Of a stretch of 64,000 nt of DNA, positions 1,793 to 64,000 are shown one piece after another. Numbering within the stretch: position 1 is the stretch's first letter; the number at the start of each line of letters is the position of its first letter. This DNA comes from a virus. Below the pieces are notes generated by a model. The model did not search any database. It had not been told where the DNA came from and saw nothing but the letters and a program-made list of their open reading frames with translations. The stretch is from positions 154,922-218,921 of IMG/VR virus record IMGVR_UViG_3300045988_107814; one strand, given 5' to 3'. A program made the translations under genes and the position numbers.

Positions 1793-4114
1793 TTAAACTT
1801 CACTAAGGTATGAAGACTCATTAAGTCTGAACTCATCAAGAGTAAGAATCTTAACTCCATACTTATTAGCTTTATCCACCTTTGATGAAGTATAACCAAC
1901 AAATGGAATCAACAAGAAGTCTGTTGTTTTTGTAACAGAACCTTCAGAACAATCATGACCTTGAATACTCAATCTGTTCTCAAGTTCCTTATCTCTTACA
2001 CCAGAGAATCTGATAGTCTTACATAAAGTTACCTTATCATTCTCTAGTCCTTTACTTGTAATAACATTTGGCATATTGTTACAAATATATACTAGATCTT
2101 TGATAAAGAACTGTCGCTCTTTGATAATAGTAGTGGCTGTTTTAGGACCGATACCCCTACCGCTATTCTCAAGTTTATAATATAATGACATATCACTATC
2201 TGTTGCAAGTTCATGCAATGACACTTTCTTCAAGATTAGTTTCCATTTCTTGTCTCCAATATCAGAGAAACCAAGAGAACCAAGCAGAATATAATCTGGT
2301 ACTTTAGAATCATATAAATGATCAATAGCCTTGATTAGATTTTCTGCATTTGTAGGACCAAGTGCCTTTGCTCTTTCTTCAGTCATTGACATAAGATCGT
2401 TAAATGATGTTAAATTAAGGGTCTTAATAGTTTCTTCAGAGAATCCTTTAAATCCTAATTTATTAACCATATTAACTACTCTTGCCCTTGTTCTACCTGG
2501 ACAACCAATATTACTACAGAATACACTTTTACTTGTATCTGATACAGATAACGGTTGACCACATTCTGGACAATTAGTAATAAATCCAAAAGGTTTCAAT
2601 GGATTGAAATCATTCTCAGGTACATTAGCTTTGTGGACATATGCCATTACATCATTAGTAAATTCAATTTCCAAGATATCATTAGGTCTTAGATTTAACT
2701 TCATGAATCTAGCATAACTATGACCAGAACTCTTTGTGTTGATCATACCATAAAACTCTACTGGATCATAATGAATCATCGGTGTTATATCGCCAGTAGC
2801 ACCAACAGTATAACTAATTCCTCTACAACGAGTAAGTTTCTTTTTGGTTTGAAACTTAATTGCAATAGAATACTCATTAATTGAATTAGATCTACCAAGA
2901 GTTTTTCTAATTTGAGGATCTAGATAAGATACAACTACTCCATCATACATAAATGGAAGAACATCTCTTACTGCTTGTGCTTCTTCTACGAATTTCTTTA
3001 CTAAGAATAATACCTTGTTATAATCTCCACGAACAACTGTATATCTACAAGGTTCACCAGTAGCATAATATTTGTTCATGAATTCAAGCTCTACATCTCT
3101 AGTCATATTATCATGACTTGTCTGCAATGGAACTAAAGTAATATACTTAGCATATTTTGAAGCCTTAGAATTACCAAGAATACCAATAATAGCATTTCTT
3201 GCATTTGCATACGTTTTACCACATTCTGCATTGAGCTGTCTGATAGCATTATACGAAATAACTGCTTCAAACTTCATACCAAATGGTTTAATATCAAATT
3301 TACCTACAGACTTAGTAAAGGTATATCCTTGAAGAATAGATGTCAGATCAGATGCTTTATCCATTTGGGTTTCACCTCTGGTTCTAGCACTTAATACTTT
3401 ATCTGTTACTTCAGCTTCGATACTAACACCATCATATTTAAGCTCTAACACAAGCTCAATATAGTTTGGATTTATGATTCCTGCTTGTACATGTTTTCTC
3501 AAGAAATCTCTTTCAAATACACGTACATTGGGGTCATTATAAACTCCACAATTAATAGCTTCGCTATCCAATACAAACTTAGCTTTGTGAAGTGTTCCAA
3601 CCAATTGAGGATACTTATGACTAGTATTTCTCAATCTCTTGGAAATAGTTTTATTCTCTTGAGAATCTACAAATTTAGATTGACCATAAGAATTACGTTT
3701 AGTAAGTTCATTACCGAATAAAAATCCATTTGTATTCATATAAGGTTGAAACTCAAACAATGATCCTTTAGGTTCTTCATCAACAAACTCTACATCAGAC
3801 GTAGAGAAGTTTGTTAATTCTACTGGTTCTGCACCTACTTGAAAATTTGGATTATATCTCTTATACTTTTCAAGAAGCATATCATAAACACCATCTTCAA
3901 GAACGAGAATACTTCTATCAGTGTTGTTATAGATAATATTAGAGATATGCAAGATATCATCTACAATACCTTGCTCAACTTCTGTCAGTGGTTCTTTGTT
4001 TAATAGATATACAATATAGCTATTAATATTAGCGATGACATCTTGTGTTAAACAAGATGCATCACCAGCTAACAGTTTTTCCACAATTGAATGCATAGGT
4101 GAAATGTTGTTCAT
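1793..4114 (-). CDS. ligA: NAD-dependent (LigA-type) DNA ligase
   Basis: Adenylation motif LELKYDGVSIE (KxDG). C4 zinc finger CPECGQPL...CSNIGCPG. HhH element GRGIGPKTA. BRCT-like C-terminus. Size and domain order as in bacterial LigA. ATGA overlap with the upstream gene. Confidence 0.88.
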   Translation of the reverse strand: MNNISPMHSIVEKLLAGDASCLTQDVIANINSYIVYLLNKEPLTEVEQGIVDDILHISNIIYNNTDRSILVLEDGVYDMLLEKYKRYNPNFQVGAEPVELTNFSTSDVEFVDEEPKGSLFEFQPYMNTNGFLFGNELTKRNSYGQSKFVDSQENKTISKRLRNTSHKYPQLVGTLHKAKFVLDSEAINCGVYNDPNVRVFERDFLRKHVQAGIINPNYIELVLELKYDGVSIEAEVTDKVLSARTRGETQMDKASDLTSILQGYTFTKSVGKFDIKPFGMKFEAVISYNAIRQLNAECGKTYANARNAIIGILGNSKASKYAKYITLVPLQTSHDNMTRDVELEFMNKYYATGEPCRYTVVRGDYNKVLFLVKKFVEEAQAVRDVLPFMYDGVVVSYLDPQIRKTLGRSNSINEYSIAIKFQTKKKLTRCRGISYTVGATGDITPMIHYDPVEFYGMINTKSSGHSYARFMKLNLRPNDILEIEFTNDVMAYVHKANVPENDFNPLKPFGFITNCPECGQPLSVSDTSKSVFCSNIGCPGRTRARVVNMVNKLGFKGFSEETIKTLNLTSFNDLMSMTEERAKALGPTNAENLIKAIDHLYDSKVPDYILLGSLGFSDIGDKKWKLILKKVSLHELATDSDMSLYYKLENSGRGIGPKTATTIIKERQFFIKDLVYICNNMPNVITSKGLENDKVTLCKTIRFSGVRDKELENRLSIQGHDCSEGSVTKTTDFLLIPFVGYTSSKVDKANKYGVKILTLDEFRLNESSYLSEV

Positions 4115-6360
4115 TTATTTTCATCTCCCATAAATTTAAACAATTGTCCTTGTACTTTGTTTACTGGGACGAACAAAGCGTCGATATCTGGATTGTTATC
4201 ATAAGGTACAAACAATTTAGATTGTGCCTCATTAACATCAGTAAACAGACCATTTGAATCCCAGCCAACAAAATAGAACAATGTGTCTTGTTGTTCTGTC
4301 GCAATGTCATTATACTTAATAGGAACTTTCTTAAATTCACAAGCAACACCCATGACTTTAAGAGTTGCATTAAGAATTTCTGCACTGCGAGACTTACCAT
4401 CCTCATCCAATACTACATTGAATTCATATGATTCAAGCATATTCTTACTACCTCTTCTTGCTTGAGGAGAAGTACTATAAATCATAAGAACTGTAACATT
4501 GACTTCAGGCCCCATAAGCATATAGATATTTTGCTCCATCTCACCATTTCTAATAGGTGTATTAGATGTAACACGCATAAACATCTTTGCTGCTTTTGAT
4601 TTAGAGTTTAGACCTCTTACATTGGTTGCAGACATAGAAGTAGCAGAATGTTTTTCTTCCGAATTCTGCTTCATTCTATATATATACTGCTTTGCAACAA
4701 TACTAGGTTTATTACTCTTTACCCATCTAGTATTTCCTCTAGAATCTTTGATAGGCACAATTGTAAATACAGGTTTGATCCATGGGAATGTATTATATAA
4801 TTCCACCAAAGTATCAAATGACACTGCATCTGAAATAGGTTCAAGAGGAATATATAATCCATCTGAATCTTCTGTTAAACAACTTACAACATTAAAACAA
4901 GCTTCTTGATCATTAATACTACTATCGATAGCATCCATAAAATATCTATCCCAATCATCTGATAAAATGCTAAAATACTCGTGCAATAATCCAACACACA
5001 TTTCAACATCAAATGACATAGTAGCCATATATCTGATGATATTCTCAGATATAAAGTTAAGCGATACCTCGTTCAACTGACCATTATTAAGTCGGTTTAC
5101 ACAAGTTGCCAAATTCCAAATGACATCAACAGGTTTACCTATATCTCCATCATCTACTCTTGGCATTTCGTTATCTTCTCTTACTTTTGAAATTACACCT
5201 TTACCGCCATATCTAGAAGTGATTTTATCACCTTCTTTTACAGGAAGACTTTCATATACAACCACTTCTACATAGATATTAGAGAATACATTGTCTTTAA
5301 AATACAATTTACCAGATAATACATCCTCACAAGTAGTATATAATTTGCTAAGTCTATGACTTTTCTTATACATAGAATTGTCAATATAATTCTTAAGAAG
5401 ATTACAAACTTCCGTACAAAATCTCTTGTTGTCCTTTACATAGAATTCTAATTGACCTTCATAGATTCCATTTGGAGTTTCTGAAATATCCTTATTACAA
5501 TACACATTGATATCAATTACTTTACCTTTAGCTTTGTAAGTAATATCATTAATCAATGTAGTCTTGAGTCTTTCTGCGGCTTGAGAGAAGAATATTTCAT
5601 CATTTCTTTCTGTTCTCACACCACAAACAATACCTTTCTTGATATCCTCACCAATGTCTGGAATGATCTTATAAATATTATCATCGCCATATAAGTTAAG
5701 AGGAATATCGTTATCGTTAATCAGAAATGCTATTTTCTTTATTTCTGGTCTTGATAATTTTTGAGATGCTGATCTAGAAATCTCAATAGCGTCTTCTGTA
5801 GTCTCTGCATCAGAAACATACATAACTCTAAGATTTCTACCAGCCATATAGTTATCAGCATCGTCAAATGATTTAGATTTCTTGACAGTTTTCCCTAAAG
5901 GGATAACATCATTGACATTCAAACTATCAAGATAGTCGTTGTTATACAAGAATCCATAAGATTCTGTATTATGACAATATGATACTCTTTCAATAACGTC
6001 CATATTATTATTCTCGTCTATTACAAACAGATAATAATGGTGTCCAGGACGATTAGAGAATTTTTCAATCTTCGCAATCACAGACCAAGCTCTGTCCGCT
6101 TTAATAAACGAAGATGAATGTTGTCCAAATAAGTTTTCGTATCCAGTACTGATATACGGTACTTCTGCATTTTCTAAGCAAACATGTTGCTGATAATGTT
6201 GAGAAAACATAGCTTTTCTTGATGCAGAGTTAGCGGCTTCAAACGGCATGTTCAAGCCTATACCCAACATTTTTTCCATGTTTCCATCATCATACTTTTC
6301 TGACGCTGCCATTATATGCTTATCAATATTGGCATCATCATATAACTTTTGATACTCCAT
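4111..6360 (-). CDS. multisubunit RNA polymerase beta subunit, C-terminal half fragment
   Basis: Colinear with the bacterial RpoB C-half. ANSASRKAMFSQHYQQ matches ANRALMGANMQRQ, GRNLRVMYV...EDAIEIS matches GQNMRVAFMPW...EDSILVS, GDKITSRYGGKGVISKV matches GDKMAGRHGNKGVISKI, and RNGEMEQNIY matches RFGEMEVWAL. Confidence 0.9.
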   Translation of the reverse strand: MEYQKLYDDANIDKHIMAASEKYDDGNMEKMLGIGLNMPFEAANSASRKAMFSQHYQQHVCLENAEVPYISTGYENLFGQHSSSFIKADRAWSVIAKIEKFSNRPGHHYYLFVIDENNNMDVIERVSYCHNTESYGFLYNNDYLDSLNVNDVIPLGKTVKKSKSFDDADNYMAGRNLRVMYVSDAETTEDAIEISRSASQKLSRPEIKKIAFLINDNDIPLNLYGDDNIYKIIPDIGEDIKKGIVCGVRTERNDEIFFSQAAERLKTTLINDITYKAKGKVIDINVYCNKDISETPNGIYEGQLEFYVKDNKRFCTEVCNLLKNYIDNSMYKKSHRLSKLYTTCEDVLSGKLYFKDNVFSNIYVEVVVYESLPVKEGDKITSRYGGKGVISKVREDNEMPRVDDGDIGKPVDVIWNLATCVNRLNNGQLNEVSLNFISENIIRYMATMSFDVEMCVGLLHEYFSILSDDWDRYFMDAIDSSINDQEACFNVVSCLTEDSDGLYIPLEPISDAVSFDTLVELYNTFPWIKPVFTIVPIKDSRGNTRWVKSNKPSIVAKQYIYRMKQNSEEKHSATSMSATNVRGLNSKSKAAKMFMRVTSNTPIRNGEMEQNIYMLMGPEVNVTVLMIYSTSPQARRGSKNMLESYEFNVVLDEDGKSRSAEILNATLKVMGVACEFKKVPIKYNDIATEQQDTLFYFVGWDSNGLFTDVNEAQSKLFVPYDNNPDIDALFVPVNKVQGQLFKFMGDENK

Positions 6361-7875: not shown

Positions 7876-7891
7876 ATTTACTTATATGTTA
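7876..7891 (-). promoter_or_regulatory. copy of 16-nt motif TAAC(A/T)N5GTAAA(T/G)
   Basis: Minus strand reads TAACATATAAGTAAAT, 15 nt after the tubulin stop codon. Confidence 0.4.
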
Positions 7892-7905
7892 GTATTATTT
7901 TATTT

Positions 7906-9477: not shown

Positions 9478-9493
9478 ATTTACTTATATGTTA
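9478..9493 (-). promoter_or_regulatory. copy of 16-nt motif TAAC(A/T)N5GTAAA(T/G)
   Basis: Minus strand reads TAACATATAAGTAAAT, 8 nt after the stop of gene 9501-10220. Confidence 0.4.
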
Positions 9494-9500
9494 ATACTTT

Positions 9501-10220
9501 TTATTTTTCTATTCTCTTCTTTTTCATACTTAATGTGTAAGGAGTCATATAATCCTCTTCTAATAAGTTAGTCATAATACCAGATCCAATCAAATAAACA
9601 TCAACTGTGTTTCTTGCAACTTGATTAGATTTATCAGATGTAAGATCTTTTAAAGATACTTGACCAGTTGCATTAATTTGGTTATACATCTTATTCTTAG
9701 CTTCCATATCATCTGCTTTAGCACGAGTAAACTCTTTTATTGTAGCATCCATATTCTGTAATACAAGAGACTCTAGTTCTCTATCGGATTCAACACCTTT
9801 AGAGTTACCTACAATAGCACCAGTCTTCGGGTTTCTAACAGTAATATCTGTATTATATCCAGATTTCTTAGTAACTAACTGTTTAAGTTTTTTAAGATTG
9901 AGATATCCAATCATAGCTTCGTTATTAGAGTTTACAGCAACTCCATCACTATTAGTATAAATACTTGGAAGTTTAATTTTCTCTAGTACTGGTACATTAA
10001 TAGCTTTAAGAGCATTAATACATTTAGTAGGATTAAGTTCTCTATCAAATGCAGTAGTCTGTAATCTGAAAGGTAATCTTCTTTTACAGAATTCCATAAA
10101 TTGATTGTCAGACATTTTAGAAAACATTTCTTTATAGAAGTTAGAATTAGCTTTTGTAGGGTCCATTGCATCAAAAAATTTATATATAAGTGCTTCAGCC
10201 TTTTTTCTTTGTGCTGTCAT
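9501..10220 (-). CDS. free-standing RNA polymerase beta-subunit C-terminal fragment homolog (degenerate)
   Basis: Colinear with the last ~210 aa of bacterial RpoB. [24 protein letters not shown] matches [41 protein letters not shown] matches [16 protein letters not shown], and [15 protein letters not shown] matches [15 protein letters not shown]. C-terminal [10 protein letters not shown] matches GINIELEDE. GEME is replaced by DRELE. Own SD (AAAGGAGGG) and own flanking terminator. Confidence 0.7.
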   Translation of the reverse strand: [239 protein letters not shown]

Positions 10221-11185: not shown

Positions 11186-11276
11186 AATTTTAAACTCCTT
11201 TTAAATAAAATTATTTTGTATACACATAAATTATATATAAATGTAATACATATTGAATTTGTAAAACTTTATATTA

Positions 11277-11436
11277 TTATCTATATATAATTATAGTGAA
11301 TAGAGATAGACATTAGAGACTATCTTGTGAGAAGCTATTCGGTCTGGATGCTCGGAGACCTTAAACTGAGCAAGGACGAACATAAACTTTGGATCTTTAT
11401 TATGATCCGCGATGTATAAAAATGGAGGAATTCATC
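11277..11436 (+). promoter_or_regulatory. class-A conserved promoter box plus ~135-nt structured 5' leader, copy 1
   Basis: Near-identical to 38270-38428. Starts TATCTATATATAATTATAGTGAATAGAGATAG and ends AAAATGGAGGAATTCATCATG. Conserved helices at 11304-09/11320-25, 11341-45/11356-60 (alternative 11349-53/11368-72) and 11391-95/11404-08. Confidence 0.6.
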
Positions 11437-11937
11437 ATGAAAAAGAATATCAAGTTAACTGTATCTGCAACTGTAAGCAAGGCTATTCGTACATTGTTAA
11501 CAAACGAAGAATTGGACTGGGAAACCAGATACCGCATCGAAAAATTCATTGAAAGGAGGATTGTAAAGGAAGACGGCTATATAGAATTGATTGAGATCAA
11601 TTCTAAAATTTATGGCAAGAATATTCTTGCCGTAAAAGATGGAAGATATGATGACCAGGATTTTGATCCTGGTCATTACGAGTATAGATATGTATATACG
11701 TATTTTCTGTATATTAATAAGGAAGGAAAATTGAAGGCAAGAGCCTTTTATACCTTCCGCAAATATAGGGATTTATATTCAGCAGAAGTACAAAGATATC
11801 CTATCAATGAAATATCAATCTTTAACATCGCAGAAATGGAATTGGAATTAGACCATGATCAAACCATAGAAGAAAAAGAAGAAATAGACTATGAGTTCAA
11901 TAATGAATATCGTAAATATTTAGGCTGCGAAGACTAA
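11437..11937 (+). CDS. hypothetical protein
   Basis: ORF 11389-11937. Start moved to ATG 11437 (MKKNIKL...), 8 nt after GGAGG. The upstream in-frame TTG lies inside the conserved leader. Confidence 0.7.
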   Translation: MKKNIKLTVSATVSKAIRTLLTNEELDWETRYRIEKFIERRIVKEDGYIELIEINSKIYGKNILAVKDGRYDDQDFDPGHYEYRYVYTYFLYINKEGKLKARAFYTFRKYRDLYSAEVQRYPINEISIFNIAEMELELDHDQTIEEKEEIDYEFNNEYRKYLGCED

Positions 11938-11969
11938 AAATCAATATATATATATACATACAATGCCTA

Positions 11970-11998
11970 AGAAACGTGTTATTGCCAAGCACGTTTCT
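11970..11998 (+). terminator. conserved terminator (cassette copy 1)
   Basis: AGAAACGTG ttattgccaag CACGTTTCT followed by TTTTT. Same stem and loop recur at 13777 and 39235. Confidence 0.8.
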
Positions 11999-12015
11999 TT
12001 TTTGACTTATTATGG

Positions 12016-12030
12016 TTAACTTTAATATAA
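12016..12030 (+). promoter_or_regulatory. AACTTTAATATAA box (candidate phage middle/late promoter), copy 1
   Basis: TTAACTTTAATATAA lies ~10 nt upstream of the SD of the prohead protease gene and directly after the conserved terminator. Confidence 0.45.
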
Positions 12031-12053
12031 AAGAACCGTAAGGAGGTATATAA

Positions 12054-12875: not shown

Positions 12876-12924
12876 AACAATAGAGAGGACATTTAAGTCC
12901 TCTCTATATTTTTCTTTTTATTTA

Positions 12925-12992
12925 TATATTATTATAGTGATAATATAGGATACGGAAATCGTTATAAAGTAACTCGTCCTATATATTGGAGG
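12925..12992 (+). promoter_or_regulatory. class-B promoter box plus ~55-nt conserved leader, copy 1
   Basis: TATATTATTATAGTGATAATATAGGATACGGAAATCGTTATAAAGTAACTCGTCCTATATATTGGAGG. Recurs at 35331-35400 (minus) and 62498-62556. Confidence 0.55.
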
Positions 12993-12997
12993 TATAT

Positions 12998-13768
12998 ATG
13001 AACAACAATAGACAGACACTTATCAATGAAGTAAATGATATCCTTAAATTCATGCAATACAGAAAATCAGTATTAGATGAAAAGCCAGAATATATAATTT
13101 ATCCAGACACAAATGAAAAAGCAATTGATTTGTTAGCAAGAAGAATGTTTATTTTAAACGAGTTCTTTAATGAATCTATCGAATCGTTGGTTGATATCTT
13201 AATTAAATATCATCCTCAACTTTTTCTTAGTGATGAAAAAGACGAGCTTACAGGTATAGTTAATGGTTTCTTAAAGCATGGTAAAAAGTTAGCTATTGGT
13301 GGTACGCCATTGCAATATGAACCAGAGGAATCTAAAGATGTCGAAAAACATATTTCTTCTGATGATATTATTGTTTATACAATAAAAGATGATAAGGTTG
13401 TAATTGCCTGGAAAACCAGACGAATCGATCAAGATTTTGATACTGTATCGTTTATCAAGCAAAATAGAATCATCAATAACTATTTCTCAGTTTATGCTTC
13501 AACACTTGATTATTTTATTAATACTTCGACTGAACCTGATAATGCTAAATATATTGCTATCAGTCCAAATGGAGCAAAAGCATATCAGATTAAAGATGGC
13601 ATGAATATTTTAGATCTTACTGTCTTTGCTATGAATAATCTTAATACAGCTCAGATTGTTCTGATTAAAATTGATAATAATATCTCCATCAAGGATGTAC
13701 CTAATATTGAATTCAATCAAATCATTTTTAGTAATGATTCAGTCCTTAATACAATGACTACTGAGTAA
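12998..13768 (+). CDS. hypothetical protein
   Basis: ORF 12986-13768 (TTG). ATG 12998 is better placed, 7 nt after GGAGG. Confidence 0.7.
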   Translation: MNNNRQTLINEVNDILKFMQYRKSVLDEKPEYIIYPDTNEKAIDLLARRMFILNEFFNESIESLVDILIKYHPQLFLSDEKDELTGIVNGFLKHGKKLAIGGTPLQYEPEESKDVEKHISSDDIIVYTIKDDKVVIAWKTRRIDQDFDTVSFIKQNRIINNYFSVYASTLDYFINTSTEPDNAKYIAISPNGAKAYQIKDGMNILDLTVFAMNNLNTAQIVLIKIDNNISIKDVPNIEFNQIIFSNDSVLNTMTTE

Positions 13769-13776
13769 TTATTACT

Positions 13777-13805
13777 AGAAACGTACTATTGCCAAGTACG
13801 TTTCT
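13777..13805 (+). terminator. conserved terminator (cassette copy 2)
   Basis: AGAAACGTAC tattgccaa GTACGTTTCT followed by TTTTT. Stem differs from copy 1 by a compensatory GTG/CAC to GTA/TAC change. Confidence 0.8.
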
Positions 13806-13820
13806 TTTTTGTCTTATAGC

Positions 13821-13836
13821 TTGAACTTTAATATAA
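13821..13836 (+). promoter_or_regulatory. TTGAACTTTAATATAA box, copy 2
   Basis: Identical 16-mer to 39279-39294, just upstream of the SD of gene 13854. Confidence 0.45.
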
Positions 13837-13853
13837 TGAGAGGAGATGATAAT

Positions 13854-19909: not shown

Positions 19910-19985
19910 TGGTTGGGATAGCTGGATTTGAACCAGCGGAATGACGGAGTCAAAGTCCGTTGCCTTACCACTTGGCTATATCCCA
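19910..19985 (-). tRNA. tRNA-Gln (anticodon UUG)
   Basis: Cloverleaf on the minus strand. Acceptor TGGGATA/TATCCCA, D arm GCC-AAGTGGTAA-GGC, anticodon stem ACGGA/TCCGT with loop CTTTGAC, and T arm GCTGG-TTCAAAT-CCAGC. Discriminator A and encoded CCA. Very close to bacterial tRNA-Gln. Variable region appears to be 6 nt. Confidence 0.85.
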
Positions 19986-19993
19986 TCATTCAT

Positions 19994-20009
19994 ATTTACT
20001 TATAAGTTA
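19994..20009 (-). promoter_or_regulatory. copy of 16-nt motif, directly upstream of the tRNA (best promoter candidate)
   Basis: Minus strand reads TAACTTATAAGTAAAT, ending 8 nt before the tRNA 5' end and lying after terminator 20028-20049. Confidence 0.5.
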
Positions 20010-20027
20010 GTGTGGTTATAAAAAATA

Positions 20028-23361: not shown

Positions 23362-23439
23362 ATAAATACCTCCAATTATTTTATTTATTAAGCTGTTGTT
23401 GCTTAATCATTTTTATAATATATAGACATATCAAAATTT

Positions 23440-30946: not shown

Positions 30947-31030
30947 AATAATTTGTTCTCCTTTACGAATTTAGTTTGAGATATGCTCTCTCAACACTTT
31001 TATAATATATAAATTGAAAGGGGTTTGAAT

Positions 31031-34714: not shown

Positions 34715-35326
34715 TTAGTCCTCCTTATTATTACCGAAAATCTTCTTGCATATTTTAATAAATGTTTCTTCTGTTGTCAAAAGTCTAGTGTCAAGATCTG
34801 ACAACTTTACAAAGTAATCCACTGAATCGAAATCAGGAGTATCTGTTACCCATAATCTTTTGTTGATATGATTTTTATAATAACAGATAAATATCGGTAA
34901 TTTATTTAATTCATAACCGTTGTTTCTATAATATTCGAGTACAGTTTCAATGCTGCCTTGAAGATTATAATCGTTCCAGTTTGTAATCAGAATAAATCCA
35001 TCTGTGATATCTTTACACAGATTATAAAGTTCATTTAATACTTCATCTGATTTAATGTACTGTATCATGTTTTCATTATTTGTAAAATTTATTTTAGTAA
35101 ATCTTACAGTTTCTTTGCTGACTCTTCTCATAATATTTGAGTCGTTAATACCAAGGTTTAAATTGACATTTTCTGTTTTGTTTGGTGAAATAACGATATC
35201 ACATAAACCGTTAAATTCACTTTTTTCCATGACAAAACTACTGTATGAATTAATAGTAGTAATATCATTGTTGGTGTACTTGGTTGCCCCATATGGGACC
35301 TGAATATAGTTGTTATTAGTGTTCAT
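34715..35326 (-). CDS. hypothetical protein
   Basis: ORF 34715-35338. Start moved to ATG 35326 (MNTNNNYIQ...), 6 nt after GGAGG of the class-B leader. Confidence 0.65.
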   Translation of the reverse strand: MNTNNNYIQVPYGATKYTNNDITTINSYSSFVMEKSEFNGLCDIVISPNKTENVNLNLGINDSNIMRRVSKETVRFTKINFTNNENMIQYIKSDEVLNELYNLCKDITDGFILITNWNDYNLQGSIETVLEYYRNNGYELNKLPIFICYYKNHINKRLWVTDTPDFDSVDYFVKLSDLDTRLLTTEETFIKICKKIFGNNKED

Positions 35327-35330
35327 ACTA

Positions 35331-35400
35331 ACCTCCATATATAGGATGAGTTACTTTATAACGATTTCCGTATCCTATATTATCACCGTAATAATATATA
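35331..35400 (-). promoter_or_regulatory. class-B promoter box plus conserved leader, copy 2
   Basis: Minus strand reads TATATATTATTACGGTGATAATATAGGATACGGAAATCGTTATAAAGTAACTCATCCTATATATGGAGG. Confidence 0.55.
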
Positions 35401-35408
35401 AGTTTAAA

Positions 35409-36599: not shown

Positions 36600-36676
36600 G
36601 TATAATATTATAGTGAGTAGAGAAGAAAGAAAGCTGCTCAGTACGTATATTATTCAATTTCTAGGAGGAAATAAAA
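36600..36676 (+). promoter_or_regulatory. ATTATAGTGA promoter-like box plus 5' leader
   Basis: TGTATAATATTATAGTGAGTAGAGAAGAAAG... shares ATTATAGTGA(A/G)TAGAGA with the class-A leaders. Confidence 0.45.
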
Positions 36677-37408: not shown

Positions 37409-38221
37409 ATGGAAAATTATTTATCATTTGAAACTGGTATAGATAATGAAGACAGAGTATATGCTCATAGAGGAGATATATTTATCTGTGAAGGATTATT
37501 TAAACCACTTGATGATATTGAAAAGAATGACCATATAATCGGAAAACCCGATAGACCAGTTCTAATTATTTCTAGTGACGAGAATAATATTAATATCGTT
37601 AAGGTATTACCATTCTCGACTAAATCTGGATCTTTTGATTCTAACTCTATTACTTCTGGTAGAGTAATTAAAGTCCCTGGAATTGGAAACAATCTAAACT
37701 CTAATTTTATCGATGTATCTCAGATATTCACTATCAATACTTATCAACTGAAAGTAAAATTGGGACGTGCTTCTCAAGAGATTGTAGATGCTGCTGTTGC
37801 ATTACATACTTTACAAAATATTGCTAATGCTTCATCAGTAAATACAATAGTCAAAATATTCAAAGACAAGTATCCAAAAGCACAAGTATTTAATCATCCT
37901 GTTACTATAAGTAATGATGGTTGTGTTAATGGACAGAAAATGTTTATGAATAATATGTATGATCCGTCAGTTGATCTGTTTACTGAAGTTAAACAAGTAT
38001 CTATAGAAGAACTTAATGCTCAGATAAAGAATACATTGAAACTACCAGAAACAAAAGAAGATGCTTATGAATTATATACAGAATGGCTATCATTAGGAAC
38101 AGATATATTTAGAAACAAGTACGGCTTATCTAGACAACAATATATAACGTTGAGAGATAAATGCGTATGTAAGATGCTAGGTAAAATAGCAAACTTTAAG
38201 AAACATGATTGGTCAGCTTAA
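37409..38221 (+). CDS. MazF/PemK-like (SH3-barrel toxin fold) N-terminal domain fused to an unknown ~135-aa C-terminal half
   Basis: Colinear with B. subtilis EndoA/MazF. HRGDIFICE matches KRGDVYFAD, GKPDRPVLIISSD matches GGVRPVLVIQND, VLPFSTKS matches AAITAQ, and FIDVSQIFTINTYQLKVKLGRASQEIVDAAVALH matches ILLEQIRTIDKQRLTDKIGHLDDEMMDKVDEAL. Confidence 0.7.
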   Translation: MENYLSFETGIDNEDRVYAHRGDIFICEGLFKPLDDIEKNDHIIGKPDRPVLIISSDENNINIVKVLPFSTKSGSFDSNSITSGRVIKVPGIGNNLNSNFIDVSQIFTINTYQLKVKLGRASQEIVDAAVALHTLQNIANASSVNTIVKIFKDKYPKAQVFNHPVTISNDGCVNGQKMFMNNMYDPSVDLFTEVKQVSIEELNAQIKNTLKLPETKEDAYELYTEWLSLGTDIFRNKYGLSRQQYITLRDKCVCKMLGKIANFKKHDWSA

Positions 38222-38229
38222 TTGTATAA

Positions 38230-38255
38230 ACAGACTGGATTAAATTCCAGTCTGT
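38230..38255 (+). terminator. rho-independent terminator
   Basis: ACAGACTGGA ttaaat TCCAGTCTGT followed by CTTTATTTT. Confidence 0.8.
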
Positions 38256-38269
38256 CTTTATTTTATATT

Positions 38270-38428
38270 TTATCTATATATAATTATAGTGAATAGAGAT
38301 AGATATTAGACTATCCTTTGAGAAGCTATTCAGTCTGGATGCTCGGAGACCTTAAACTGAGCAATAGAAGAACATAAACTTTGGATCTATTACTATGATC
38401 CCTGATGAAGAAAATGGAGGAATTCATA
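38270..38428 (+). promoter_or_regulatory. class-A conserved promoter box plus structured 5' leader, copy 2
   Basis: See 11277-11436. Same start and end sequences, same helices, different loops. Confidence 0.6.
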
Positions 38429-39211
38429 ATGATTAACAATATTACTGTAAAGTACGTAGACTCCGTAACTAAGGTTACTATAAAGAAAGAGATTAATTTC
38501 AGAGATCTTTTCGGAAAAGAGGATATTTCAAAGATTTCTAAGTATGGAATTATTCTCGCTACCGTTAACTTTGAAAAGAACTGTAAGACAATTAGGCGTA
38601 GAGCATTTTTTAGAGGTGGATTGAATAAGGATTTGATGTACTATATCCTGACTGCTTCTGAAAATAGTATTTTGATTAAATTTAGTGAAAAGTTTGAAAT
38701 TAATCTGATGAAATATTCCAACATCGATTTCATGGATGAAATGTTAAGCTACTGGGATGTTAATGATGAACAAGAACTCGTTAACTATTATCGAGAAACT
38801 TTGCCTGTATTTGAATATAAGAGAACTTTTGCTGAAGTCTTGGCTACTCTCGTATCTTATTCAGATTATTGGGATAATCTTCAGTATTGTCTTAAGTATA
38901 ATGATATTGAAGATACTGAAATTAAAATTAGTAAATCGTATTTTAAGAAGCAGGGTGATAATTTATATACGATAACATGTTGTTACAAAAACGAAAATTA
39001 TGAAGGGTATATGACTGTCGTTGTACAAGAATGTAAAGCAATTAAAATGCTTTTTAATAATTATAATAGTGGTGCTATTATTATTGATAATCATGAAATT
39101 GGAATAGTTAATGAAAATCCTTGTCCGGATCCCATTGGTCAAGGACAGAACCTCTTGACTGTTTTGATTTTGGCCATGTTTTTGTCTAACGATGGTGTTT
39201 GGTGGAAGTAA
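38429..39211 (+). CDS. hypothetical protein
   Basis: ORF 38405-39211. Start moved to ATG 38429 (MINNITVKY...), 8 nt after the conserved GGAGG. Confidence 0.7.
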   Translation: MINNITVKYVDSVTKVTIKKEINFRDLFGKEDISKISKYGIILATVNFEKNCKTIRRRAFFRGGLNKDLMYYILTASENSILIKFSEKFEINLMKYSNIDFMDEMLSYWDVNDEQELVNYYRETLPVFEYKRTFAEVLATLVSYSDYWDNLQYCLKYNDIEDTEIKISKSYFKKQGDNLYTITCCYKNENYEGYMTVVVQECKAIKMLFNNYNSGAIIIDNHEIGIVNENPCPDPIGQGQNLLTVLILAMFLSNDGVWWK

Positions 39212-39234
39212 TCTGATATAATATAACAAAAGAA

Positions 39235-39261
39235 GAAACGTGTTATTGCCAAGCACGTTTT
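39235..39261 (+). terminator. conserved terminator (cassette copy 3)
   Basis: GAAACGTG ttattgccaag CACGTTTT followed by CTTTTTT. Confidence 0.8.
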
Positions 39262-39278
39262 CTTTTTTGTTTGTTAGC

Positions 39279-39294
39279 TTGAACTTTAATATAA
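39279..39294 (+). promoter_or_regulatory. TTGAACTTTAATATAA box, copy 3
   Basis: Identical to 13821-13836. Upstream of the 39319-46707 structural operon. Confidence 0.45.
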
Positions 39295-39318
39295 ATGACT
39301 AGAAAAGGAGGATTAATT

Positions 39319-47677: not shown

Positions 47678-47790
47678 TAACTTTTTTCGACTGTATACTA
47701 TAAAAGTGTTATAGAGACAAGATTATATTTAATCTTGCAATCCACACCCGAAAAGTAAAAAGAAAGAAGAAAGAAATGAGGTTATTTATT

Positions 47791-49951: not shown

Positions 49952-50042
49952 TATTTCCTCCGATAGGATGTTGAATCTTTATAACTGTTTTACAGTATCC
50001 TATATTCATAATTATAATATATAAATAAGTTATAGCAAATTA

Positions 50043-53509: not shown

Positions 53510-55084
53510 ATGGCACAACAATCAGAAAATTATGATTACCTTTATGAGAGACTACAGGAATATTACAATGTTTCTGTAACAGGTAATTATCCGTTTAATA
53601 TTCCTTTGAATAAGAACGGACAACCGATTTATAAGTTCGAGTCTAGAATCGTTCCTATCGATTTTGACGAGACTTGTAAGAATGATATTATCAAGGGTAT
53701 CGGTTTCTATATTTCTAAGAAGCAAGATATCAAGAAGGATGTTAGATCTATTGATAGTATCTTTTCATCTAGATTTGGTATGCAAATTGATGACATGACA
53801 CCTTTTGGAGACGTTTATAAATGTAAATGTGGAAAGACAATGATGAAAGTAAACAATGGATTGTTTTGCCCATTTTGTCACACAAAGGTTAGATATGTTG
53901 CAAATGACTTCTCTATTACTGGTTGGATTAAGATAAATGATTTTGAAATTATCCATCCAAACATGTTTAAGAAGTTAATCTCATTTATGGGAAAGAAAGT
54001 TTTGGATTCTATTATTAATATAGATACTAAAACAAACGAGGATGGTTTTGAAAATGTAAAAGAACCATCCAAAGCAAGTCCGTTTTCTGGTCTTGGCTTT
54101 ATCAAGTTTAAAGAGAGATTTGATGAAGTTATGGAATTCTACAGAAATAAGTACAAATCTAATGCAAATAAGATGGCTTATTATGAAGACATTATGCAGA
54201 ATAAGAAAATTGTATTTTGTCATTGTCTTCCAGTTTATACTTCTCAGTTAAGACCATTCTCTATTAAACAGAATAAATTTAACTTTGAAGGTAATAATGC
54301 ACTTTATAATCTTATTGCTGGATTAGTTGCTAAGCTTAATAAACACAATATTTATTCTCGTAATAGAAATAAGCCGACTAATCAGATTCTGTATGATATT
54401 CAAATGAAGTATATGGAGATCTATGCAGATCTTGAAAAGGTAATTGCACAAAAGAAAGGTTATACTAGATCTCTTAATGGTGGTAGATATAACTTTACTG
54501 CAAGAAATGTAATTATTCCTGATCCTGATTTAAGGATTGATGAGATCATTCTTCCATATCCATCATTGATAGAATTAATGAGTCTTACTATCATTAATAT
54601 TCTTACAAAGACATATAGTCCGTCAGAAGCTTATAGAATTTGGGATGAAGCTCGTATTGAGTATAATCCTATGATTGCTGATTTGATACAGAATATTATT
54701 GATAGTCAATATGTAGCAATTACACTTAATCGAAATCCTAGTATTTCTCCGTCTTCTATTATTCAGCTTCATGTAGTTGGAGTAACTAAAAATGACACTT
54801 ATAGTTGTCATGTACCTCACGAGATTCTCAAATCAATGGGTGCAGACTTTGATGGCGATACTTTGAATATTCTTCTTATTATTAATGATGAATTCTTATT
54901 AAATGCTGCTAAGTTGTTTAATCCTAGACTCAGTATGCAAATATCATATAATGATGGAATGTTTAATGGTAAGATGTCATTGCAGACCGATACAATGATC
55001 TGTATTAATTCATTTACTCAGCTTGGAATTGATAGTATTACTGATGAAGAGTATGCTATGATTGAAGCTTGTCAAAATTCATAA
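53510..55084 (+). CDS. multisubunit RNA polymerase beta' subunit, N-terminal fragment with catalytic DFDGD loop
   Basis: Zinc ribbon YKCKCGK...CPFCH. LNRNPSISPSSIIQLHV matches LNRAPTLHRLGIQAF. Catalytic MGADFDGDTLN matches NADFDGDQM. Confidence 0.9.
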   Translation: MAQQSENYDYLYERLQEYYNVSVTGNYPFNIPLNKNGQPIYKFESRIVPIDFDETCKNDIIKGIGFYISKKQDIKKDVRSIDSIFSSRFGMQIDDMTPFGDVYKCKCGKTMMKVNNGLFCPFCHTKVRYVANDFSITGWIKINDFEIIHPNMFKKLISFMGKKVLDSIINIDTKTNEDGFENVKEPSKASPFSGLGFIKFKERFDEVMEFYRNKYKSNANKMAYYEDIMQNKKIVFCHCLPVYTSQLRPFSIKQNKFNFEGNNALYNLIAGLVAKLNKHNIYSRNRNKPTNQILYDIQMKYMEIYADLEKVIAQKKGYTRSLNGGRYNFTARNVIIPDPDLRIDEIILPYPSLIELMSLTIINILTKTYSPSEAYRIWDEARIEYNPMIADLIQNIIDSQYVAITLNRNPSISPSSIIQLHVVGVTKNDTYSCHVPHEILKSMGADFDGDTLNILLIINDEFLLNAAKLFNPRLSMQISYNDGMFNGKMSLQTDTMICINSFTQLGIDSITDEEYAMIEACQNS

Positions 55085-62434: not shown

Positions 62435-62497
62435 AATAACAACCTCCTTTATTTTAGCATTTACTAAATAGTTGACCTGTAATAAATATATCGATTA

Positions 62498-62556
62498 AAT
62501 ATTATAATAGTGATAGGATACGAAAATCGTTATAAAGTACACGTCCTATATGGAGG
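62498..62556 (+). promoter_or_regulatory. class-B promoter box plus conserved leader, copy 3
   Basis: AAATATTATAATAGTGATAGGATACGAAAATCGTTATAAAGTACACGTCCTATATGGAGG. Confidence 0.55.
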
Positions 62557-62562
62557 TTTAAT

Positions 62563-63060
62563 ATGAATATTAACTTTAAAGATTATCTTGCTCTGAGATA
62601 TGTATCTGATAAAGATATTAGTCCAGAGTATGCGGTAGAAGAAATTAACAAAAAATTTTATAGAGTTGAAGAAGTATCAGTAGATGAAATAATTGATACT
62701 AATGGGCCTGACTTTGATGGTGTATTTAAAACAGATAAACTTTATAAATTCACCGGCCATTGTTCTATCGACAGGCAATTTATTTCATATTATGTCGATT
62801 ATAGAAAGATCGGGTACAAGTTTACATTATCTTTCTATATTAATGGTAAGAAAATAAAAGTTAAAGGTGACTGTGTTAAGAGATTAATTTCTCTTATACA
62901 AACATCCGAAGATGATTCTGATAATGATAGAACTATTGATCTGTTAAAAGAAGAGTCTGAGATGGATTTGACAGTGTATTTCAGACTTATTGATTTAGAC
63001 AGATTCAATGATCTTCGTCATAAATACTTTTTACTTTCTAAAGAGGATTTAATGTCATAA
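62563..63060 (+). CDS. hypothetical protein
   Basis: 165-aa ORF, TGGAGG SD supplied by the class-B leader. Confidence 0.7.
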   Translation: MNINFKDYLALRYVSDKDISPEYAVEEINKKFYRVEEVSVDEIIDTNGPDFDGVFKTDKLYKFTGHCSIDRQFISYYVDYRKIGYKFTLSFYINGKKIKVKGDCVKRLISLIQTSEDDSDNDRTIDLLKEESEMDLTVYFRLIDLDRFNDLRHKYFLLSKEDLMS

Positions 63061-63560: not shown

Positions 63561-63824
63561 TTACTTAATTTCAGATGTTTTTACCCAACCAGTTACATAG
63601 TTACCGATAGGAGTTCTACCTACATTGATAGTAGAGTTTGTAATACGAATTCTTCCGTTAGAAATCTCGTTACTATAGATGTAATAAGTACCAGACTTCT
63701 TGCCACCAGATGTAGCAGTAGCAGAAGAATATAAAGTAGCATTACTTAAAGTTACCTTAGTACCAGCTGTTAAAGTTTTCTTAACAGGTGCAGATGTTGC
63801 AGTTCCTTTGACAGCAGATACATC
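63561..63824 (-). pseudogene. out-of-frame terminal SH3b-like cell-wall-binding repeat (87-codon ORF; frameshifted continuation of the gene at 63757-64000)
   Basis: Read by hand; absent from the supplied ORF track. From aa ~17 it encodes KTLTAGTKVTLSNATLYSSATATSGGKKSGTYYIYSNEISNGRIRITNSTINVGRTPIGNYVTGWVKTSEIK. This is nearly identical to the repeat encoded upstream in another frame. Confidence 0.6.
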
Positions 63825-64000
63825 AACCCAACCAGTTACATAGTTACCGATAGGAGTTCTACCTACATTACTAGCAGAGTTAGTAATACGAATCTTATTG
63901 TTTATAACTTCACTACTATAGATATAATAAGTACCAGACTTCTTACCACCAGATGTAGCAGTAGCAGAAGAATATAAAGTAGCATTACTTAAAGTTACCT
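63584..64000. repeat. tandem direct repeat, period 244 bp (not a multiple of 3)
   Basis: CCCAACCAGTTACATAGTTACCGATAGGAGTTCTACCTACATT occurs at 63584 and again at 63828. The ~170 nt shared within the window are near-identical. Confidence 0.85.
63757..64000 (-). CDS. C-terminal part of a protein with tandem SH3b-like cell-wall-binding repeats (probable endolysin or wall-binding protein); 5' end outside the window
   Basis: Open frame from the window end to TAA at 63759-63757. Reads VTLSNATLYSSATATSGGKKSGTYYIYSSEVINNKIRITNSASNVGRTPIGNYVTGWVDVSAVKGTATSAPVKENFNSWY*. Confidence 0.6.

Follow-up and report, generated by a model that had tools for sequence, protein, structure and literature searches.

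A candidate early-promoter and folded-leader cassette in front of unrelated genes of an uncultured AR9-like jumbo phage

Why should a phage carry nearly the same non-coding sequence in front of two genes that have nothing in common? The question is raised by a 64,000-nucleotide (nt) stretch of the IMG/VR virus record IMGVR_UViG_3300045988_107814 (positions 154,922 to 218,921), hereafter the window, which is a portion of the genome of a ~213-kb AT-rich jumbo phage of the gut, uncultured and equipped with split multisubunit RNA polymerases (RNAPs). An element of about 160 nt occurs there twice, at 11277-11436 (copy A) and 38270-38428 (copy B). We consider it probable, rather than established, that this element is an early-promoter and folded-leader cassette, in which the 5' end of the mRNA is clamped by a helix, a trans-acting factor recognises the leader, and the genes behind it are exchanged between copies of the cassette.

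The two copies and their putative promoter

Both copies lie on the + strand at the positions given in an initial annotation of the window, and their high identity is borne out: 11277-11439 and 38270-38431 are 89.7% identical, with 148 of 165 columns of a global alignment identical, 12 mismatches and three indels (5 gap columns) where two had been counted. The similarity is confined to the element, as identity in the flanks (60-120 nt upstream, 150 nt downstream) is 53-59%, the random level for DNA of 30% GC, which is the GC content of the window. The 32-nt string with which the copies start occurs exactly twice in the window and in none of 100 shuffles, and both an nhmmer profile and a covariance model recover these two as the only full copies. 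Both terminate in AAAATGGAGGAATTCAT(C/A)ATG, and the products that follow, of 166 and 260 amino acids (aa), are indeed unrelated (best BLASTP E = 0.24), so that kinship of the two proteins was rejected. A DNA similarity of ~15-20 nt right after the ATG of the two genes is probably part of a recombination arm. No match to the product of gene A was found in Pfam and PHROG searches, and protein family searches gave no family assignment for that of gene B. A leader peptide (ATGCTCGGAGACC...) was also considered and discarded; its 23-codon frame in copy A is shifted by an indel in copy B, has a TGA stop in the S clade of relatives and has no ATG in the R clade.

The features of the two copies are as follows (UTR, untranslated region; PWM, position weight matrix; MFE, minimum free energy fold; SD, Shine-Dalgarno sequence; ORF, open reading frame; class I, the leader family described below; L numbers, family loci).

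11258-11267, + strand: upstream promoter element TTTGTAAAAC of copy A, at about -40 to -31, with a TG at -38/-37 that is conserved in 34 family promoters
11282-11297, + strand: early-promoter core of copy A, TATATATAAT followed by TATAGT, with TATAAT at -12 to -7 (match to the AR9 consensus; PWM 40.9 bits)
11298-11436, + strand: putative 5' UTR of copy A, 139 nt, +1 = G11298 (covariance-model match 81.1 bits)
11298-11303 with 11335-11340, and 11305-11309 with 11320-11324, + strand: predicted helices P1 and H1 of copy A (MFE from +1)
11341-11345 with 11356-11360, and 11349-11355 with 11366-11372, + strand: predicted helices S1 and S2 of copy A
11391-11395 with 11404-11408, + strand: clade-specific hairpin of copy A; SD GGAGGA at 11424-11429
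11437-11937, + strand: gene A, a 166-aa ORFan (ORF list)
38275-38290, + strand: early-promoter core of copy B, TATATATAAT followed by TATAGT, the same as in copy A (PWM 41.7)
38291-38428, + strand: putative 5' UTR of copy B, 138 nt, +1 = G38291 (covariance-model match 88.3 bits)
38291-38296 with 38326-38331, and 38298-38302 with 38311-38315, + strand: predicted helices P1 and H1 of copy B (fold)
38332-38336 with 38347-38351, and 38340-38346 with 38357-38363, + strand: predicted helices S1 (outer pair A.C) and S2 of copy B
38383-38387 with 38397-38401, + strand: clade-specific hairpin of copy B; SD at 38416-38421
38429-39211, + strand: gene B, a 260-aa ORFan, with homologues behind a class-I leader in L061, L066 and L068

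The initial annotation took the element for a promoter followed by a structured 5' leader ahead of unrelated genes, and our analysis agrees. Early promoters of jumbo phages are AT-rich motifs of ~10 nt with their centre near -10. In phage AR9, where they were mapped by differential RNA sequencing and primer extension, they follow the pattern AAATATATATTAT-(6N)-G+1 (e.g. aaatttatattataataGtG); the early promoter used by the virion RNAP is given as TATATAWWAT-N6-G(+1), mapped examples reading ...ATATATTAT-N6-G+1 (Lavysh et al. 2017, PMC5312081). The TATATATAAT-TATAGT-G of the window shares 10 of 13 positions with the AR9 early consensus and has its G at the same distance. The general layout is also alike, with an AT-rich motif of ~10-13 nt reaching to -7, six variable bases and a G at +1 (TATATATAAT/TATATATTAT-TATAGT-G in the window, ATATATATTAT-N6-G in AR9), and the two phages resemble each other further in their split beta/beta' RNAPs and in a late box of the AACA-N6-TA type. 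In AR9 the UTRs are unusually long (26-491 nt) and contain conserved motifs whose function was unknown to the authors (PMC5312081).

By analogy with AR9, the box is most likely an early promoter read by a virion-packaged phage RNAP, and transcription would start at G11298 in copy A and at G38291 in copy B. With these starts the box keeps its promoter role; it is not wholly untranscribed, as had been supposed, since its last 11 nt (GAATAGAGATAG) would most likely be RNA, forming the 5' arms of two helices. That the helices start exactly at the predicted +1 offers independent support for the start site. Across the 34 family promoters a conserved block extends from about -17 to +6, accompanied by the TG inside TTTGTAAAAC; copy B is devoid of the TTTGTAAAAC element, and a terminator occupies its position instead.

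Further promoters of this type were seen in the window. A third one, found in the promoter scan, has TGTATAATATTATAGT and then G (36601-36676, + strand, +1 = 36615) and precedes a different, short leader. A variant, TTATATATTAT-TATAGT-G, is found at 12925-12939 and in relatives and is nearer still to the AR9 consensus. This variant belongs to a separate repeat, class X, with copies at 12921-13010 (+), 35310-35401 (-) and 62495-62567 (+) and a weaker one at 50007 (-). Its promoter, the nearest match to the mapped AR9 early promoters, precedes a leader of ~55 nt, where AUAUAGGA pairs with UCCUAUAU immediately ahead of the SD; identity between the copies is 71% overall and close to complete in the leader core. 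Other sites that match the early-promoter core less well, of the TATATTATAAAAGTG type, occur at 23405-23422 (-), 30992-31009 (-) and 47694-47711 (+), which suggests roughly 9-10 early promoters in the 64 kb.

A predicted 5' clamp and a conserved core

The leader family was gathered by pattern scans of viral, metagenome and genome collections together with a covariance model. The covariance-model search of related phage metagenomes, which the initial annotation had proposed, did return further homologues. In total there are 22 distinct class-I leaders. They are spread over at least 8 genome-size contigs, each genome having 2-3 of them, and the genes behind them are unrelated ORFans, at least 11 in number and 97-261 aa long. 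All clades have in common only the first ~80 nt; the 3' part, including the GGATC/GATCC hairpin, is clade-specific. We take class I to be one of the multi-copy cassette families for early-gene expression in a clade whose members are uncultured jumbo phages of ~213-225 kb with split multisubunit RNAPs like those of AR9/PBS1. The initial annotation did not recognise it as a known RNA family, and no match to one was found: with Rfam 15, the window gave only a tRNA at the gathering threshold; at E<=10, copy A gave nothing and copy B only noise, its best match, on the terminator, reaching 21 bits where the threshold is 77 bits; and the relatives' leaders gave nothing at E<=0.1.

Three helices are common to the family:

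P1: GAAUAG (+1 to +6) with CUAUU(C/U), the 3' arm lying ~40 nt downstream; A-U changes to G-C in L004 (GAGUAG/CUACUU)
H1: GAUAG/CUAUC; G-C is replaced by A-U in L004 and by U-A in L058
S1: (A/G)GUC/GAC(U/C); the outer pair is A-U in 10, G-C in 8, G.U in 1 and broken in 1 (window copy B)

Over 21 distinct sequences P1, H1 and S1 are paired at 99.7%, so the further homologues, which might have broken the helices, preserve them, with three pairs compensated. P1, as GAAUAG/CUAUUC, had been overlooked. The helices that had been named earlier are present, except that GGTCT/AGACC reads AGTCT/AGACC in copy B, where the outer pair is an A.C mismatch. The covariation score of the 21 sequences is 0.141, compared with 0.090 in shuffles (none of 500 reached the observed value) and at most 0.048 with slid partners. 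From an unbiased MAFFT alignment of the other clades, RNAalifold recovered P1, H1 and S1, the last of them showing A-U/G-C covariation, and from the window-type group it recovered P1 and H1. The MFE from the predicted +1 contains P1, H1, the GCUCGG/CUGAGC hairpin (S2) and the GGAUC hairpin, with z-scores of -2.2 and -1.5 for the core of the two copies. Covariation support for P1, H1 and S1 is modest. The earlier argument for RNA conservation, that stems are kept in the two copies while loops drift, is uninformative, because the 8 closest copies show no compensatory change and their observed score equals that of shuffles; the conclusion itself is retained in part, on the strength of the three helices of the wider family, with some compensatory change.

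Given the predicted +1, P1 begins at nt 1, as a 5'-terminal stem-loop should, and this property is found beyond class I. We collected 44 leaders behind TATA[AT][AT]AT-N6-G in family loci and grouped them into 17 sequence families. Over these families the mean pairing probability of nt 1-5 is 0.76, against control values of 0.33 (3' part shuffled) and 0.50 (start moved by 12 nt), and the 5' end is clamped in the MFE of 13 of the 17 families against 19% expected (binomial 4e-7; Wilcoxon 5e-4). In a six-base test, all six bases were paired in 8 of 10 family leaders and in 2 of 11 unrelated chance matches to the box. The leader that starts at 36615 has its own clamp, GAGUAG/CUGCUC, which reads GAGUGG/CCACUC in its orthologue in L066 and GAGUGG/CUACUC in that in L068, a compensated change.

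The class-I core, CUAUUYRGUCU...GACYU(U)WAAACUGAGC, is near-invariant. It contains S1 as well as a candidate helix S2, (U)GCUCGG/CUGAGC(A), with a UUAAA linker. Since the order of the strands is S1a-S2a-S1b-S2b, the two helices can coexist as an H-type pseudoknot. The initial annotation had GGTCT/AGACC and TGCTC/GAGCA as mutually exclusive folds; a pseudoknot accommodates both, and competition need not be invoked. Two other pairings were set aside. A long-range helix of GUCUGGAU with AUCCNNGAC, proposed by RNAalifold for the window-type group, shows no compensatory change and is missing from the other clades, and sequestration of the SD by UGUUCC, with GGAACA as the anti-anti-SD, is plausible in the R and S clades and involves segments that are absent from the window-type leader.

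A second leader, class II, was noticed behind the identical promoter in relatives, in at least 9 copies, none of them in the window:

L001:3296
L002:3308
L011:3208
L012:11776
L015:3193 (-)
L022:3116
L024:21
L036:2589
L037:9021

By eye it has an H-type pseudoknot layout similar to that of class I, CAGGU[UGAUGC]AWACCUG-AAACCUCAA-GCAUCA, followed by a hairpin ACGUAGAAAYUCUACGU; its variation is small, with one wobble (UGAUGU in L024).

Exchangeable genes and the phage that carries them

The initial annotation overlooked that the two genes also share a repeat at their 3' side. This repeat, D2, is 66 nt long, consists of a strong intrinsic terminator and a box that resembles the AR9 late promoter, and is present in three copies.

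11969-12034, + strand: 3' bracket of slot A, intrinsic terminator at 11969-11999 plus T run, and late-promoter-like box GGTTAACTTTAATATAA, of the form AACN-N6-TA (repeat D2; terminator scan)
39233-39298, + strand: 3' bracket of slot B, terminator at 39235-39261 and late-promoter-like box GCTTGAACTTTAATATAA (repeat D2; terminator scan)
13776-13841: third copy of D2, ahead of another structural gene (repeat family of 3 copies)
38230-38255, + strand: intrinsic terminator of a MazF-like gene, abutting the promoter of copy B to form a composite terminator/promoter (terminator scan)

The D2 hairpin has a conserved loop, UAUUGCCAA, and a compensated change in its stem (GUGU/GCAC vs GUAC/GUAC). It is followed by (G)CTTGAACTTTAATATAA, similar to the late promoter consensus of AR9, AACA-(6N)-TA/G (PMC5312081), ahead of prohead protease and virion genes; the gene 3' of the slot B bracket matches PHROG 21032, a virion structural protein. 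Intrinsic terminators are enriched in the window (7 against 0.6 expected), and another one, at 12880-12907, adjoins the early promoter whose start is at 12939. A separate repeat, at 7876-7902, 9478-9504 and 19994-20020 (read on the - strand), holds in its reverse complement AACATATAAGTA, which matches the late consensus of AR9, AACA-(6N)-TA, exactly, and lies upstream of minus-strand genes such as that of the UvsX-like recombinase.

In the related contig ERZ1034984.9 (L061), slot A has flanks that match those of the window at 90-100% identity, but the gene that lies in it, between leader and terminator, is a homologue of gene B (60-84% nt identity), not gene A. The points at which identity switches between L061 and the two slots of the window lie within the leader and at the D2 terminator. 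As judged from this comparison, the leader on the 5' side and the terminator/late-promoter repeat on the 3' side bracket exchangeable ORFan gene cassettes.

An exchange of this kind is known from the PeSLs (promoter-early stem-loops) of T4-type phages, small multi-copy cassettes of a strong early promoter and a stem-loop terminator that flank ORFans and recombine, so that genes are replaced, inserted or deleted (Arbiol et al. 2010, PMC2839356; Comeau et al. 2014, PMC4122927). Here too a multi-copy early promoter and a stem-loop terminator form a composite amid ORFans, and recombination explains the gene replacement in slot A of ERZ1034984.9. PeSLs differ in being ~50-100 bp units of the sigma-70 type, without a long leader, in T4-like phages of Gram-negative hosts; the cassette of the window has an AR9-type promoter and a ~140-nt structured leader as its 5' arm and a terminator with a late promoter as its 3' arm. 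The sigma-70-like promoter of a T4-type myovirus is lacking in the window cassette, which has no usable -35 and belongs to an AR9-like jumbo phage, and we therefore regard it as an analogue of PeSLs rather than a member.

Exchange may also affect the leaders themselves. Compared with window 38290-38372, the 5' part of the leader at L066:11490-11573 (-), comprising the H1 loop, the linker and the GAAUAGAAG form, is much more diverged and resembles other clades, in a region otherwise 95.8% identical to its window orthologue. This pattern suggests gene conversion between leader copies.

The phage itself appears to be a distant relative of AR9. The best GenBank matches of its RNAP subunit are those of the Bacillus phages PBS1/AR9 and the Staphylococcus S6 group (~31% aa identity), homologues of its prohead protease are 71-88% identical on IMG/VR contigs of 212-225 kb, and among GenBank phages no relative, near or distant, was found at the DNA level; together these place it among uncultured jumbo phages. 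Two sets of split beta/beta' subunits are a hallmark of the AR9 type, and two beta-type genes lie within the window. Its other products include an S77/S80-type prohead protease, topoisomerase II subunits, a DnaB-like helicase, a UvsX-like recombinase and large virion proteins.

4111-6360, - strand: split RNAP beta-type subunit (protein family searches)
53510-55084, + strand: split RNAP beta-type subunit (protein family searches)
19910-19985, - strand: tRNA-Gln (anticodon UUG), the sole tRNA (68 bits, Rfam tRNA model)

The strong GGAGG ribosome-binding sites indicate a Firmicute host. In a scan of bacterial genomes the sole match to the element was a 212.7-kb contig of a 'Bacilli bacterium' metagenome-assembled genome (MAG), that is, a phage itself, and a host origin of the element was dismissed on this ground. 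The contig (L079, CAADXH010000018.1, 212,719 bp) is a genome-length related jumbo phage filed in the MAG 'Bacilli bacterium HGM10607'; the filing is probably a binning artefact and possibly a hint at the host lineage. At the edge of the window, two 186-nt segments (63572-63757 and 63815-64000; 88% identical, 243 nt spacing) are probably a repeated domain of a minus-strand ORF that runs off the window.

Proposed mechanism, rival explanations and meaning

In the mechanism that we favour, TATATATAAT-TATAGT would, by the AR9 analogy, be read by the virion-packaged RNAP, with the start at the G six bases downstream. In the resulting mRNA, GAAUAG is predicted in silico to pair with CUAUU(C/U) ~40 nt downstream, so that P1 would enclose H1 and leave no free 5' end. 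In Firmicutes, mRNAs are subject to 5'-end-dependent decay by RNase J1 and RppH, and 5' stabilisers counteract it; for this reason the clamp may shield early mRNAs from such decay. Stabilisers of this kind are the 5'-terminal stem-loops of ermC, aprE and the phage SP82 leader. These are similar in having a helix at or near the 5' end and then a strong SD, which would be expected to block decay from the 5' end; the element of the window differs in being much longer and in its invariant core, which has no counterpart there. The gene directly upstream of copy B, at 37409-38221 (+), encodes a product of 270 aa whose N-terminal part is a PemK/MazF-like endoribonuclease domain (Pfam E = 9.5e-8); the proximity of a phage-borne mRNA interferase to mRNAs with clamped 5' ends is suggestive of a possible link.

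The invariant core would then form S1 and may add S2 to give the H-type pseudoknot, a step which is partly shown. The weakest step is the next one, in which the core would be recognised by a shared trans-acting factor, through which the translation or decay of this subset of early mRNAs would be co-regulated; such a site seems the most likely role in view of the primary-sequence conservation of the core, its 2-3 occurrences per genome and the unrelated ORFans that follow it. Parallels are the 5' pseudoknot of T4 gene 32 mRNA and translational operators bound by phage proteins. The leader of the window would be similar in having a possible H-type pseudoknot upstream of the SD, plausibly as a protein recognition site, and differs in that its pseudoknot is a prediction, with no covariation in S2, and in being multi-copy ahead of unrelated genes. 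Finally, the clade-specific hairpin and the strong unpaired SD (GGAGGA, 7 nt before the ATG) would drive translation, and, as the comparison with L061 shows, the leader and the 3' repeat serve as homology arms through which unrelated ORFans are swapped between slots, as in the PeSLs of T4.

What the analysis shows is the repeated unit of promoter and leader, the conservation of P1, H1 and S1, the rule of the 5' clamp and the exchange of cassettes; reading by the virion RNAP, the position of the start, mRNA stabilisation through the clamp and a factor in trans for the invariant core are deductions. Several points weigh against this account. The start site, the timing and the polymerase are deduced solely by analogy with AR9, and the TATAAT at -12 to -7 would suit the host sigma-A too. 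When nine AR9 early leaders were folded from their mapped transcription start sites, they proved short and unstructured, with no clamp. The clamp as a general AR9-like trait is thereby ruled out, and we regard it as a trait of the new clade; it also follows that the AR9 analogy covers the promoter and not the leader. AR9 differs further in that its RNAP subunits are only ~31% identical, its leader sequences have no similarity to those of the window phage, and TTTGTAAAAC is an extra element of the latter. The alignment behind the covariation score was fitted to the structure model, and independent events behind the covariation are few, with P1, H1 and S1 contributing one pair each. Whole-leader z-scores of the MFE (-1.07 and -0.44) indicate unremarkable stability. 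In S2 all changes are wobble-compatible and none is compensatory, and a GCTATGG variant in 4 loci weakens it; an extended S2 covariation, CTAAAG/CTTTAG, was dropped, as it seemed convincing in 3 loci but is broken in the recombinants L065 and L075. There is no candidate for a factor that binds the class-I core, and the similarity of the copies could have been kept by gene conversion rather than by selection on the RNA. Any RNA-level function of the leader is putative.

The main rival, which we judge unlikely, is that the promoter alone is functional and that the leader is a hitch-hiker whose copies are kept alike by recent duplication and gene conversion, useful only as a homology arm in a purely PeSL-like manner. 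The replacement breakpoints in leader and terminator, the mosaic or recombinant leaders of L065, L075 and the 5' part of L066, the 8 closest copies devoid of covariation and the ordinary MFE of the whole leader would all fit such an origin. However, the H1 loop differs in length and sequence across clades while the stems are invariant, P1, H1 and S1 contain compensatory changes, and the clamp recurs in unrelated leader families, which copying of one sequence cannot explain.

We give no more credence to the possibility that the box is a host sigma-A promoter, with an extended AT-rich -10 and an UP-like upstream element, read by the host RNAP. Such a promoter would be favoured by the perfect TATAAT at -12 to -7 from the predicted start and by the TTGTAA upstream of it in many copies. 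Yet TTGTAA lies 21 bp from TATAAT where it is present and is missing from copy B, so that a standard sigma-70/sigma-A promoter is not indicated; no canonical -35 is seen at the boxes of the window, and a scan of the window with a sigma-70-like consensus showed no enrichment of sites. A canonical sigma-70 promoter was rejected on these grounds. Moreover, conservation continues through -6 to -1 and +1 to +6, as in the AR9 virion-RNAP promoters, and the phage encodes its own multisubunit RNAPs.

It is very unlikely that the leader, by processing or by a premature end of transcription, becomes a stable 5'-UTR-derived sRNA acting in trans, or that it acts on the polymerase for terminator read-through, as the put sites of phage HK022 do. 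The position of the leader right after the promoter, in at least two copies, does recall nut/put sites, and behind each class-I gene come a strong terminator and, after it, late genes. 5'-UTR-derived sRNAs have been reported from giant phages in the literature. Against these parallels, neither a terminator nor an obvious processing signal lies inside the window-type leader, similarity to put/nut or to any Rfam family is lacking, and nothing links read-through to the leader.

Least likely of all, if only slightly less so, is the riboswitch-like leader of the initial annotation, a ligand sensor whose invariant core would be an aptamer switching the fold between S1 and S2 or over a longer range: the core shows strong conservation, has an A-rich linker and could form a pseudoknot, GUCUGGAU is predicted to pair with AUCCNNGAC in window-type leaders and the UGUUCC of other clades can pair with GGAACA or the SD, but these alternative pairings show no covariation and are not common to the clades, 11298-11436 and 38291-38428 contain no terminator-like site, the SD is unpaired or inconsistently paired, with no conserved helix sequestering it in window-type leaders, Rfam gives no match, the ORFans downstream share no metabolic theme and form no coherent gene set, and the element is absent from the bacterial genomes scanned. 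A bolder extension of our account, which we hold only tentatively and consider doubtful, is that the class-I and class-II cores represent a new class of pseudoknotted cis-regulatory RNA, read by a factor or a small molecule and switching a regulon of early ORFans, and that, separately, the near-universal clamp would be a shield from a 5'-end nuclease, either the host RNase J or one of the phage's own.

Returning to the cassette of early promoter and folded leader, its promoter type and the shuffling of cassettes are of known kinds, and its leader family, the 5' clamp rule and the possible pseudoknot core are new, with no Rfam match and no counterpart in the literature searched. Should the leader be inert as RNA, what is left is a repeated promoter and the finding is ordinary. 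Transcription in jumbo phages with their own multisubunit RNAPs is known from a handful of cultured phages, and post-transcriptional control in such phages is almost unexplored. For an uncultured gut clade, the present analysis provides a promoter model that predicts start sites at single-nucleotide precision, a simple and testable rule according to which early mRNAs start with a clamped 5' end, and an 80-nt conserved RNA core that could serve as bait for its partner. It also indicates that PeSL-style shuffling, known from T4-like phages, takes place in a very different lineage with another type of promoter, where it helps to explain the turnover of ORFan early genes.

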